From a bacterium (GTDB lineage Bacteria > Margulisbacteria > Marinamargulisbacteria > JAHFDA01): a stretch of DNA of 64,000 nt. Shown in pieces: positions 17,942-25,339 of this stretch. Under the pieces are notes generated by a model. It was given only the letters and a program-made list of their open reading frames with translations. It was not told the DNA's origin and searched no databases. The stretch spans positions 7,995 to 71,994 of the forward strand of contig JAHFDA010000005.1 in NCBI GenBank assembly GCA_023249225.1, given 5' to 3'. Position numbers and translations under genes: made by a program. The stretch's first letter is position 1. Every line of letters begins with the position of its first letter.

Positions 17942-20900
17942 ATGCCCACCGCCTGGTTGTTACGCCGTATAAGTTCTACTGACACGATTGAGGGCATCAG
18001 TATCCACAGCACGGCCGGTATAGATCTGATGTTTATCAAACGGGCGGGGCTGGAAAAATACCTGGCTCACTTTTTAAACGACCCGCCCAATTTACAGATC
18101 GAAGCCATCAATGCCTGGGAGAGCGCTCGCGATGAACACTCCACCCTTCTGCAGGGCCAGTTTCAGGATCTTGTGCAAAACAAAGCCGCCGTCATGCGCT
18201 TACAGCAGGCCCTGCACGAAAAACCGGTCAGCACGCAAGTCGTTTTTTTAAACCTGTTGGCTTTATTTGAAGCCCGGGCCTTATTGCGCCAGTGCTTCCA
18301 TTTTGAAAACTTTTTCAAGCAGCTTTGCGAACAGCCGCTTGAGGAACTGGTTCAGGTCAACGCTTGTCTTGATCTGCTACATATAGACGAAATGACCTGT
18401 ATCCAGCGAGTGGTTAAAAGACAACTCCAAAGTCCCGAAGTCCGCAACCGCATTAAGACCGTGCTGCTTAAACGGAATTTTCCGCGTGACTCCAAAATGC
18501 AACTGACGGTTTGGACCTATTATTTTTCGGTACTCCTGCATTTAAGCCCAGAGGACTTTGTGGATGAATGCTGGCAGCGTTATCAGGTTCAGATCGATCT
18601 TAGGCAGGGTGAACGGGCGACGCTGCACAGCTTTCATTTATTGAATTATTTTCATGACGTGCATCCCACCCTTTATCAGGATCTTGTAGCCACGTTGGAC
18701 GTAGATAAGTTGGGGCGGGTGATCTCGGCGGCATATAAGCATTGGCTGGGTGGCCTGAAACTTACAAAAGATCAAGTCACCCCGCCTATACATGAAGACC
18801 CCACTGTTAACCAGATCTATTCTGCCTTACGCGGGGCACTTTCTGCTAAGGATCTAAGTGATTGCTATGAAAAGATGATGGCCGTTGCTCAAACACCCAG
18901 ACCGGCTGCAAAAGGAGGCCGTCCCTTTGTAGCGCTCGATCAACTGCACGCGGACACGCACGTACCAACGGGAGATACCCGGCTGAATGTTTTAGAACGT
19001 TTAAGCGAACAATGGGGGCCTAAAAATGGCATTTTGCTTGTCAGTCACCGCTCTGGTGTTGGCAAGGAGCGGCTCATTTGCGGACAACTGGCCCGTGATC
19101 TGCGCCAGCAGCAGCAGCGCACGCGTCTGTTAAACGACTACTATTTTGAAAGTCTGCCTGCCGATGCGTTTATTGAAGACAACTACAGCCTGCATAAATT
19201 TTTCTACAGTTACCTGGGCTACCAAAAAGCGCACGGTTGCATTGCGCTGTACCTGCGTCACATCGAAGATGTGCTGGCTTGGACTTCGAGCCGTTCTCTT
19301 TTTAACCAGCTTGCCAAGGCCATGCACAAGGGCGAATTTCGCTTGATCGCGGGGGTGACATACGCTGATCTTGAACGGCTGCCCGAAGCGTTTAAGGAAG
19401 CCTGCCATATCATCGAAGTACCCGAACCAGCGCCGGAGGAGCTTGAAAAAATCCTCACTGACCGGCTTCCACAGATTGCCCAGGAATATCAGGTTGAAAT
19501 GGATCCCCTGCTGCTCAACGTTATTTTGCAGCACCCCCAGCGCCCAGGCTTAACACCCAACGGTGAACCGCAAAACAGCCTGACCGTGTTAGAAGGCGTG
19601 GCTGCCTTTGTAAGACACCGCGCGGGTGGCGCGGGGGTGACGGCCGAGGATGTAGATGCTTTTATGCAGGCGCGTTCAAGCAGCCTGAATCTGGGGGGTA
19701 GCCTGCGTCGGCGCATCGAAGCGGCCAACCTGCCGCCGCATGTATTGCACGACGCCCAGCAAAAATTAAGCACCATAGAAGAGAACCATTCGTCCGAAGG
19801 CATCAAATACCGCGAATGGATCAACCTGTTGCTTAATCTGCCCTGGCACCACTGCCATTACCCGCAGCAAGGCAGCCGACAAGAAATTTATGAACGCGTA
19901 TGCGCCACCATCAGAACCAGCTATTTTGGCAACGACACCTTGATTAAAAAACTAGCCTTAAAAGTAGCTGCCGGATACAAAAGCGGCAAAGGCATGTATA
20001 TCCTGCTGGATGGACCGCCGGGCACGGGTAAAACTTTGCTGGCTAAAACTCTGGCCGGGGCTCTGGGTGTGCATTTTGAGCATGTGGCTCTTGGCGGTGT
20101 GCGCGACGAGGCCGAAATTCGTGGCCACCGCATCACCTATATCGGTTCCACGCCCGGACGGATTCTAAAAGCCATGGCCAAGGCCCGTAACCAACACTTT
20201 GTGATGTGCCTTGATGAAATTGAAAAAGTAGAAACCCGTGGCAGCCAGGGCGACCCGCAGGCAGCCTTGATGGAACTGCTCGACCCCGAGCAAAACCACG
20301 CTTTTACAGACACCTACCTGGGTCATGGTTTTGACTTTTCAAAAGTGATTTTTGTCGCCACCGCCAATGGCACCAGCAGCATTCACAAGCCGCTGCTCAA
20401 CCGCTTTGAAGTCTTTGAAATGCCTGGCTATACCGACGAAGACAAAATTCAAATCGCCCGGCAGTTTATGATCCCGATCAAGTTGCGCGAACAGGGTCTT
20501 AAGGCGGAGCAAGTACGTTTTGGCCAGGATTCCGTTGCTGAAGAAGCCCTGCTGCGGCATATTATCGAAGGCTACACTTGGGAGGTAGGTACGCGCGATC
20601 TTAAACGGGTCATCGAAAATCTACTCATCCCGATACGGGTGATGCATGAACAAACCATCGAAACCGGACAGACATTTGAAATGGATCAGACTTACATAAA
20701 GGAACAACTCGGAAAACCTGCCAAAGCACCGCAGCTTGCGGGCACACCGATGGTAGGCCAGGTCAATGGCTTGGCCTGGACTGCCCAACGTGGCAGCGTG
20801 CTCACCATTCAAGTACGGATGTTTGCGGCCAAACATCAGGTGCAGTTTACGGGCAACCTTGAAAAAGTCATTGGCGAAAGCTGTCAGGTGGCTCTAACCG

Positions 20901-24600: not shown

Positions 24601-25339
24601 GCCCTTGATCATAACCGAGGCGCTCATTAGACAAACACTGCGTGCACCACGCGTGATGCCTCATATTTCGGGCGTGCCCACTGTGGGCCGCGTCAACGGT
24701 TTGGCCTTTGACAGTCTGCGGGGCTCGGTATTGCCGTATGAAACTCATGTGGAGCAGGGTTCGGGCCAGTTTCGGCATACCGGCAGGCACGGCGACATGT
24801 CTAAAGATGCTTTTGTGGTGGCCAAATCGGTTGTGCAGCAAATGTTTCATCGTTACCCCGCTTTGCGGGAAGCATTCTCAAAGAAGTTTCTGGACCCAAG
24901 AAAACCGTTGAGACCCAATGAAGACCCCTTTAGAAGGGTGGATATCCATGTGCATGTCCCTGATATTTACGATGGCATTGACGGCCCTTCGGCGGGCAAC
25001 ACCAAGGCCCTGTCATTGGTGTCGGCCATGACCGGCATTCCGGTACACGGGCATGTTTTTATGACCGGAGCTTTAAAGCTCACTGATCGCGAGGCGGGGA
25101 TCATTGGAGGCTTGCTCAAAAAATTTACTGCGGCCATCAGCATTGTATTTACCGATCCTGCTGCGCCCAAAAACCGTATCATCATTGTGCCCGAGGACAA
25201 CCGCTCGGAATACAATGAACTCCCCCGTGAAATCCGGGAGCATCCGGGCCTCGAGGTTATCTTTTGCAAGCACTTTGATGAGTACGCAAAAATTGCCTTG
25301 GTGGAGGGGGACAAGTTTCTTACTCCAGCATCTTCTTAA
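21659..25339 (+). CDS. Giant Lon-family protease homologue (paralogue 2, ~1227 aa) with the same architecture (helical N-region, degenerate Clp D1-like module, Lon AAA+, Lon S16 protease)
   Basis: [74 protein letters not shown]; IATAN...LLDRIQV; GVRKYEQ. Protease [17 protein letters not shown] and GGLLKK. Degenerate D1-like Walker A GVGQE; [24 protein letters not shown]. Lon linker [13 protein letters not shown]. The ORF-track start 21536 lies inside the MITE. The first ATG outside it is 21659 (start uncertain). Confidence 0.8.
   Translation: [1226 protein letters not shown]

Follow-up and report, generated by a model that had tools for sequence, protein, structure and literature searches.

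Two adjacent genes, here called gene 1 and gene 2, lie head to tail on the + strand of a 64,000-nucleotide (nt) stretch of contig JAHFDA010000005.1 (the window), to whose coordinates all positions refer. Their products, p1 and p2, are Lon-like proteases in which an orphan helical domain and a predicted dead AAA+ module of the Clp/Hsp100 D1 type precede the Lon part. The genes and the domains of their products, in amino acids (aa), were as follows.

17942 to 21364, + strand: gene 1, from ATG at 17942 to the stop codon, encoding p1 (1140 aa) with an orphan alpha domain, a predicted dead Clp-D1-type AAA+ module, a LonA three-helix bundle, a Lon AAA+ module and an S16 protease
17942 to 18973, + strand: orphan all-alpha N-region of p1 (aa 1-344), with a confident model only for aa ~23-135
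18974 to 19687, + strand: Clp/Hsp100 D1-type AAA+ module of p1 (aa 345-582), alpha/beta core plus lid, predicted to be catalytically dead
19688 to 19876, + strand: Gly/Ser-rich linker of p1, then LonA three-helix bundle (the C-terminal part of HI(CC)) ending in an LPW motif (aa 583-645; matched by TIGR00763 from model position 257)
19877 to 20656, + strand: Lon AAA+ module of p1 (aa 646-905), motifs intact
20657 to 21361, + strand: S16 Lon protease domain of p1 (aa 906-1140), with an A-type centre (Pro before Ser) and a Lon_C match
21659 to 25339, + strand: gene 2, from ATG at 21659, encoding p2 (1226 aa) with a four-part layout as in p1 and an extra acidic, Pro-rich insert at ~aa 285-345
21659 to 22870, + strand: orphan alpha N-region of p2 (aa 1-404), 24% identical to the N-region of p1
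22871 to 23608, + strand: Clp-D1-type AAA+ module of p2 (aa 405-650), predicted to be dead
23609 to 25336, + strand: three-helix bundle, intact Lon AAA+ module and S16 protease of p2 (aa 651-1226)

The two proteins were 32% identical from end to end (BLASTP, E 9e-168), which agrees with the whole-length identity of 30-40% given for them in an earlier note on this DNA. By domain, identity was 23.6% in the N-region, 35.6% in the D1-like module, 42% in the three-helix bundle, 41% in the Lon AAA+ module and 37% in the protease. None of the features of the gene pair is attributable to chance.

The C-terminal ~550 aa of both proteins (from ~587 in p1 and ~652 in p2) matched positions 255-795 of the endopeptidase La model TIGR00763 (E 1e-134 for p1 and 8e-119 for p2), and the Lon half of both was matched by Pfam AAA, Lon_lid and Lon_C (Lon_C E 3.5e-48 in p1 and 2.5e-30 in p2). 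The three-helix bundle aligned to LonA residues 254-301 (hhalign, E 7e-6). The Lon AAA+ module of p1 had Walker A GPPGTGKT at aa 691, pore loop TYIG at aa 732 and Walker B LDEIEK at aa 757, and that of p2 had Walker A GDPGVGKT at aa 763, pore loop TYIG at aa 804 and Walker B LDEMDK at aa 829. Alignment with LonA homologues located sensor 1 (ATAN), the Arg finger (LLNR in p1, LLDR in p2) and sensor 2 (GTR / GVR). The catalytic centre was DGPSAG in both proteins. Ser1032 and Lys1075 formed the dyad of p1, with 42 residues between them, which is the characteristic spacing of the catalytic Ser and Lys (PMC9569914); in p2, Ser1111 pairs with Lys1154 (42-residue spacing) or, after a one-residue loop insertion, with Lys1155, there being Lys at both positions. 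Judged by their residues, the Lon motor tier and the protease centre are intact in p1 and p2, and the C-terminal Lon module can be called complete and apparently competent, as had been proposed, on the strength of the TIGR00763 and Lon_C matches and of the ATPase motifs and Ser-Lys dyad in place.

The scores of the Lon half were nonetheless below those of LonA proper, with 450.5 (p1) and 398.4 (p2) bits for TIGR00763 (equivalog cut-off 608.05) and 338 (p1) and 271 (p2) bits for NF008053 (cut-off 891). The Lon modules of p1 and p2 were 32-40% identical to 29 sampled LonAs, which were at least 44% identical among themselves, and formed a long branch of their own outside all 29 in a neighbour-joining tree that was midpoint-rooted without an outgroup and sampled the closest LonAs only. 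The Lon AAA+ modules were nearer to ClpA D2 (hhalign, E 1.7e-13) than to ClpA D1 (E 5e-6), in agreement with the D2-likeness of the Lon AAA+ module described previously (PMC6722904).

A profile of both N-halves (p1 aa 1-585 and the p2 counterpart), searched against 1.84 billion representative proteins, retrieved p1, p2 and 15 other proteins (E 1.4e-7 to 7.8e-4). All 15 matches were confined to profile positions ~350-660 and all were Clp/Hsp100-type proteins matched in their D1 region, none being a Lon. At the matched stretch Pfam placed a D1 AAA domain in most of the 15 and the AAA_lid_9 lid in 10 of them, and the six Clp-type matches scanned with NCBIfam were nearest to ClpA, ClpB and ClpV. 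Alignment with Clp D1 modules (L-INS-i) was colinear across the whole D1, large and small subdomains included: it covered the pre-P-loop helix, five core strands and the G-[EQ]-[LFI]-[RK]-x-I-G-x-T-T block and, in the lid, the x-E-P-x-x-E-E start and the P-D-x-x-[IL]-x-[LV]-[LI]-D sensor-2 helix. With nine unselected ClpA sequences, the p1/p2 pair aligned to D1 over 194 columns (hhalign, E 2.7e-4) and to D2 over 25 columns (E 0.05); the same module aligned to the Lon AAA+ module of p1 and p2 themselves over 159 columns with E 0.02. In the AlphaFold2 (AF2) model of p1 1-700, residues 345-582 had a core of five strands with helices between them and, after it, a helical lid, with a predicted local distance difference test score (pLDDT) mostly of 68-93 and of ~58 around aa 411-420 and 531-540.

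A reverse search with a hidden Markov model (HMM) built of the Clp-type D1 segments only scored 86.7 bits at p1 aa 361-575 and 47.8 bits at p2 aa 422-622, the best of 4000 shuffled N-halves reaching 4.6 bits. These scores are somewhat inflated, since the Clp segments had been chosen by their similarity to the query, and this is one of several points that weigh against the D1 assignment. The top 50 Foldseek matches of the AF2 model in the PDB were all ClpC, ClpA, ClpC1, ClpB or Hsp104 (E 2e-9 to 1.5e-7), a result that amounts to consistency and is partly circular because the AF2 input alignment held Clp D1 segments. A narrow HMM of nine ClpA D1 sequences scored p1 at only 9.1 bits and did not match p2, and the two-sequence D1-like profile found no Clp among PDB sequences at E<=1. 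On these results the module is a divergent D1 that stands nearest to Clp-like proteins of a non-canonical kind and is weakly linked to canonical ClpA/B/C. Neither single sequence had a direct match to Pfam AAA or AAA_lid_9 in the D1-like region, and single-sequence searches of the PDB with either N-half returned nothing relevant. Taken together, the sequence comparisons support homology of p1 ~345-582 and p2 ~405-650 to Clp/Hsp100 D1 (AAA plus AAA_lid_9), and not to D2 or to a duplicated Lon AAA; the large-plus-small D1-like AAA module suggested in the earlier note was thus recovered by the 15 D1-region matches, the reverse HMM, hhalign and the partly circular AF2/Foldseek comparison. ClpA matches from the first protein search aligned to the Lon AAA+ module and not to the N-module, and were discarded as evidence on D1.

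The motifs of nucleotide binding and hydrolysis were degraded throughout the D1-like module. Where Clp D1 has a Walker A of G-x-P-G-V-G-K-T, p1 had HRSGVGKE (GVGKE at aa 372-376, nt 19055-19069) and p2 had DKPGVGQE (GVGQE at aa 433-437, nt 22955-22969), so that the P-loop Lys was kept in p1 and lost in p2. The Walker B of Clp (ILFIDEIH) corresponded to ALYLRHIE in p1 and VLYLRNAG in p2, with DE changed to RH and RN, respectively. The Arg fingers (RRF in Clp) were EAC in p1 and KNS in p2, and the sensor-2 helix (PDKAID in Clp) was EPQNSL in p1 and EPENSL in p2. The KYRG pore loop of Clp D1 had no equivalent in either protein, its tyrosine being gone. The non-canonical Walker A (GVGKE; GVGQE) and absent Walker B noted before were both seen in this alignment with Clp D1, and on these residues the module is predicted to be catalytically dead in both copies. 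Blocks RTRLLND, HIIE.PE and GEP.NSLT were invariant between the two modules. The D1-like module appears to have been under constraint since the duplication, because its identity (35.6%) was close to that of the Lon domains (37-41%) and exceeded that of the N-region (24%).

In LonA, a globular domain at the N-terminus and a long helix that helps to build a helix triangle above the pore are followed by the three-helix bundle, the AAA+ domain and the protease, and LonA is severely impaired without its N-terminal region (PMC8519571). In p1 and p2, homology to LonA started with the three-helix bundle, near LonA residue 254. The LonA N-domain PF02190, which was carried by 29 of 29 LonA matches, had no match in p1 or p2 at E<=0.1, and the N-half gave no signal with LonA residues 1-250 and 115-250 (hhalign, E 0.13-0.56). 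Predicted secondary structure of the N-region was all-alpha and not beta-rich. To judge from these comparisons, p1 and p2 lack both the globular N-domain and the long helix of LonA; the replacement of the LonA N-domain by 650-700 aa of helical and Clp-like sequence, as first proposed, was borne out by the lack of PF02190 and of an hhalign signal to LonA 1-250. Residues 1-344 of p1 and 1-404 of p2 had no match in Pfam, the PDB or the representative protein library, and the N-region had no Clp_N match and gave E 0.22 with the ClpA N-domain (hhalign). Residues ~285-345 of p2 were an acidic, low-complexity insert rich in Pro, Thr and Glu that p1 does not have, and which is probably a disordered linker inside the N-region.

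No other protein among the 1.84 billion representatives had a Lon of this architecture, and scans of GTDB species genomes and of metagenome contigs from JGI yielded no relatives of the N-half. Each of p1 and p2 was the sole member of its own 90% cluster. The profile search for a conserved family therefore found the fusion, and found it in p1 and p2 with no further members. A word-indexed protein search with the p2 N-half returned an empty result and carries no weight, as it missed even p2 itself (P0042), which exact-sequence look-up finds. An identical p1 sequence, with the same neighbours, was present on two contigs from independent assemblies, one of 80.9 kb at NCBI and the other of 9.1 kb at ENA; because of this, and because both paralogues share the layout, an assembly artefact is not the explanation. 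The fusion is old, and not a recent accident or chimera, because both paralogues carry the whole architecture at 32% identity. Among 185,579 GTDB species representatives, the GatB encoded in the window (44960-46408) found no match above 54% identity, and its top matches were scattered over Desulfobacterota, Ignavibacteria, Margulisbacteria and others. The singleton status of the pair would thus partly reflect an unsampled lineage, the host being, by its GatB, without a close sequenced relative.

Compared with known systems, p1 and p2 share with LonA (endopeptidase La, MEROPS S16 A-type, for example the Lon of E. coli and of M. taiwanensis) the three-helix bundle, AAA+ and S16 protease over ~550 aa, with ATPase motifs, pore loop and Pro-Ser centre alike. 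They differ from LonA in being without the PF02190 domain and the helix of the helix triangle, in scoring below the equivalog cut-offs and in having ~580-650 extra N-terminal residues that include a second AAA+ module, predicted to be dead. In class I Clp systems (ClpA-ClpP, ClpC-ClpP) the upper module is homologous to the D1-type module of p1 and p2 (large subdomain plus lid), the Lon AAA is D2-like, and the order D1-D2-peptidase is as in p1 and p2. Unlike class I Clp, however, p1 and p2 are each one polypeptide, have an S16 Lon peptidase instead of ClpP and a Lon three-helix bundle between the tiers; their D1 is presumably dead and without pore-loop tyrosine, and their second AAA is Lon-type with Lon_lid. 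There was no Pfam match to ClpB_D2-small or Clp_N in either protein.

LonB and LonBA have a membrane anchor, located between Walker A and B or N-terminally, and LonB has Asp before Ser, whereas in p1 and p2 the spacing of Walker A and B was ~66 residues without an insertion and Ser was preceded by Pro (no transmembrane prediction was made). Models TIGR00764 and TIGR02902 matched the protease part only (62-75 bits, cut-offs 516-723). LonC (ATP-independent, MEROPS S16.007) is a Lon-family protease with a degenerate ATPase module, as p1 and p2 also have; in LonC this is the only AAA and is B-type, whereas p1 and p2 have an intact Lon AAA and their degenerate module is additional and Clp-type. The LonC model TIGR02903 gave 78.7 and 46.5 bits (cut-off 678.8). 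BrxL models matched the protease domain only (TIGR02653, E 2.3e-4; PADLOC BrxL, E 1.5e-6), and there were no BREX genes among the neighbours of the pair. A full-text literature search found no description of a Lon carrying a second, Clp-type AAA+ module. The architecture therefore stands outside the described Lon subfamilies, as the earlier note had supposed, by failed membership in LonA, LonB/LonBA, LonC and BrxL and by the absence of a description in that literature.

NSF D2 and Pex1/Pex6 D1 are non-hydrolysing structural tiers of machines in which the other tier is the motor, and Pex1/Pex6 is built of two paralogues. Neither family is related to the pair or has a protease fused to it, and their likeness to p1 and p2, drawn by analogy, would lie in the degenerate motifs of one tier.

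Several other proteins resembled the pair in part. Two Lon-like proteases of high guanine-cytosine (GC) content, P0002 (1397 aa) and P0003 (1141 aa), had three Lon-type AAA+ modules ahead of one S16 domain. They were the best non-self matches to p1, and their terminal Lon module was ~30% identical to p1 and p2; their extra modules differ from that of p1 and p2 in being Lon-type, with LPW helix bundles of their own and canonical Walker A and B, and are neither Clp-D1 nor degenerate. This multi-AAA Lon architecture also seems to be undescribed. P0043 (923 aa) had an N-domain and a D1 like those of ClpA, followed by another AAA module with a Clp-type AAA_lid_9 lid and, fused directly to this module, an FtsH-type M41 peptidase; it is another Clp-D1/protease chimera. 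P0044, P0047 and P0049 (577-624 aa) were short two-AAA Clp-like proteins without an N-domain. A variant of sensor 2, EP[D]xxLTLLDR, and the motif LN[DG]Y were common to these three and to the degenerate D1 modules of the window, and their group is the likeliest source of the fused D1 module.

The chain order shown by the sequences is orphan alpha domain, D1-type AAA+ module (read as dead), Lon three-helix bundle, intact D2-like Lon AAA+ module and S16 protease, which reproduces in a single chain the layout of a class I Clp unfoldase with its peptidase and makes the pair a natural class I-like Lon. The account judged probable, if with considerable reserve, is that p1 and p2 form a pair, restricted to their lineage, of ATP-dependent Ser-Lys proteases that derive from LonA and in which the LonA head was secondarily replaced by the orphan alpha domain and a dead Clp-type D1. 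The fusion is older than a tandem duplication that is itself old, and the presumably dead module has since been conserved almost like the catalytic domains. Hexamers would form via the Lon AAA+/protease core; the Lon tier alone would hydrolyse ATP and thread substrate into the S16 chamber, and the D1 modules would build a non-hydrolysing upper tier or crown. That tier and the helical N-domains may take over the role of the LonA N-domain and helix triangle in gating and in substrate or adaptor selection, in parallel to the structural tiers of NSF D2 and Pex1/Pex6 D1. The two paralogues could form separate hexamers with different clienteles, or one mixed hexamer. Besides the weak link to canonical Clp proteins, there are points that detract from this account: the family consists of two members in one organism, the conservation of the D1-like module rests on a single paralogue comparison, and without arginine fingers and with a damaged P-loop there may be no closed D1 ring at all.

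Rotanova et al. (2019) conjectured that the HI(CC) of LonA is what is left, as its helical domain, of a D1-like module after loss of the nucleotide-binding domain, and that the Lon AAA corresponds to Clp D2 (PMC6722904). The HI(CC)/H1(M) conjecture predicts kinship of LonA with a form that has a D1-like module upstream of a single D2-like AAA+, which is the exact layout of p1 and p2. It is conceivable, though improbable, that p1 and p2 are relics of a two-AAA+ LonA ancestor in which NB1 was kept, and not products of a later fusion with a Clp D1. Apart from the conjecture being in print (PMC6722904), this is favoured by the position of the D1-like module directly upstream of the retained C-terminal HI(CC) helices, by the long branch of the Lon modules outside the 29 LonAs (32-40% versus at least 44% identity) and by a deep-branching host lineage (GatB at most 54% identical to any GTDB representative). 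It is a doubtful proposition, likewise, that they represent a class I-like Lon lineage that branched before the modern LonA radiation, kept a degenerate NB1 and assembles both paralogues into a mixed hexamer, in which a structural D1 ring sits above the Lon motor ring; if that were true, the loss of the NB1 domain preserved in p1 and p2 would be the origin of the enigmatic HI(CC) region of LonA. However, the D1 lid of p1 and p2 showed no detectable similarity to helices alpha3-alpha7 of HI(CC), there is no long coiled-coil or M-like insertion, and the lid had no sequence similarity to LonA HI(CC) residues 115-250. The module was nearest to a divergent modern Clp-type subgroup with which it shares EP[DQE]xSLTLLD, which fits later acquisition. 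The long branch may equally mean accelerated evolution, and the tree behind it was the neighbour-joining one described above (midpoint-rooted, no outgroup, closest LonAs only); a singleton distribution is the opposite of what is expected for an ancient, widely inherited form. Secondary replacement is favoured over the relic because of the lack of similarity in the lid and the resemblance of the module to the modern divergent Clp subgroup, and the arrangement of p1 and p2 may be a secondary fusion and not the ancestral state. A relic of another kind, in which the N-half is a decaying, functionless remnant of fusion and p1 and p2 are encumbered ordinary Lons or incipient pseudogenes, is unlikely. 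The loss of every ATPase motif of the D1-like module, the N-region conserved at only 24%, the low-complexity acidic insert of p2 and the lack of relatives elsewhere would suit it, but open reading frames (ORFs) of 3.4 and 3.7 kb were still open at 32% identity, and the D1-like module retained 35.6% identity, near that of the catalytic domains, with invariant blocks and the whole AAA core colinear. As LonA without its N-terminal region is severely impaired (PMC8519571), a replacement function would be expected therefore.

The extra module might instead be a degenerate internal copy of the Lon AAA, given that P0002 and P0003, which have three Lon-type AAA modules and were the best non-self matches to p1, exist and that the module had a weak hhalign signal to the Lon AAA of its own protein (E 0.02, 159 columns). 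This is scarcely credible and was rejected on the hhalign preference for ClpA D1, by about two orders of magnitude, and on the all-Clp match list (15 of 15 library matches Clp-type in the D1 region, 10 with AAA_lid_9, none Lon); moreover, the D1-specific blocks xGEL/F-R-xIGxTT, xEPxxEE and PDxxLxLLD were recognisable, and no Lon-type three-helix bundle or LPW motif preceded the module. Very unlikely, too, is a role as cargo of an anti-phage or stress island at the tRNA-Gln gene, with BrxL-like action. The pair lies directly downstream of a tRNA gene with MITE copies close by (see below), and matched BrxL and IetA models weakly, but the PADLOC matches were generic ones to P-loop and protease domains (BrxL 1.5e-6 versus endopeptidase La 1e-134), the window had neither an integrase nor a direct repeat of the tRNA 3' end, its GC content was without anomaly, and the neighbours were ordinary chromosomal genes (YceI-like, PAS kinase with NtrC-type regulator, pilus/secretin locus).

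Lon is usually described as a one-ring AAA+ protease whose substrates are picked by the N-terminal domain. If the replacement account is right, p1 and p2 suggest from their sequences that other domains can take over the function of the LonA N-domain and helix triangle, and they offer a compact single-chain model for the part of a non-hydrolysing AAA+ tier in assembly, gating and substrate choice. They are also a concrete test object for the conjecture of a D1 vestige in LonA. Lineages without close sequenced relatives may hide much architectural diversity.

The features surrounding the two genes were as follows.

17779 to 17852, + strand: tRNA-Gln (UUG), found by ARAGORN, 89 nt upstream of gene 1
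21376 to 21584, no strand: element like a miniature inverted-repeat transposable element (MITE), ~209 bp, in the spacer between gene 1 and gene 2, with 14-nt perfect terminal inverted repeats TGTAACTATTCAGC
27706 to 27916, no strand: second MITE copy, with 96% identity to the one in the spacer, lying outside the protease genes

The ORF that holds gene 1 begins at 17720 and crosses the tRNA-Gln gene, and there was no in-frame ATG, GTG or TTG between that gene and ATG 17942; the start of gene 1 was set at 17942 for these two reasons. The ORF that holds gene 2 begins with ATG 21536, within the MITE. Gene 2 was delimited at 21659-25339 because ATG 21659 is the first start codon past the repeat element and aligns with the N-terminus of p1. 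Of the sizes first given, ~1140 and 1227 aa, that of p1 stood at 1140 aa and that of p2 was corrected to 1226 aa, since 21656 is a CTC codon and the ATG is at 21659. Public gene calls were over-extended at the 5' end, through tRNA-Gln in P0001 (gene 1, 1209 aa) and from inside the MITE in P0042 (gene 2, 1267 aa).

The MITE is short and non-coding, with terminal inverted repeats and two near-identical copies, as is usual of such elements; both copies were bordered by A/T-rich sequence (AAAAT / AATAAT) resembling target-site duplications. A weak sigma-70-like match (21563-21590) spanned the right end of the first copy, just upstream of gene 2, and counts in the promoter and terminator scan were not above shuffled expectation. 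No att-like repeat of the tRNA-Gln 3' end was found elsewhere in the window, no specific PADLOC defence model matched the pair, and the window had no other Lon or Clp genes.

The window is chromosomal, with RelA/SpoT, RecJ, NadB and GatB present. Upstream of the pair, on the opposite strand, were a YceI-like gene, a 411-aa ORF without assignment, a PAS histidine kinase and an NtrC-type regulator. Downstream, on the opposite strand, were three pilin-like genes, an ABC-2 transporter, a secretin, a PilO-like gene and a 1348-aa prepilin-type protein. The context reported before, with tRNA-Gln ahead of the pair, a MITE between the genes and a pilus locus adjacent, was found again in the ARAGORN tRNA, the two-copy MITE and the downstream pilin, secretin and PilO-like genes. 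Apart from this context, nothing spoke for the accessory, stress or defence role that had been suggested for the pair.

Three tandem prepilin-type (N_methyl) genes of 128-130 aa lay at 26156-27437 (- strand), and two of them were 81% identical in DNA sequence over 300 nt (26168-26467 and 27057-27356). A 19-nt sequence, TTCATATGCGTGAATAATC, was repeated exactly at 26133-26151 and 27688-27706, the second copy abutting the second MITE. At 35450-39496 (- strand), beside the secretin and PilO-like genes, the 1348-aa protein combined a prepilin N-terminal methylation motif with Chlamydia-PMP-type repeats, and the secretin of the window had two Glucodextran_B-like domains. The prepilin/PMP-repeat protein, the secretin and the PilO-like genes form an unusual pilus or secretion locus.

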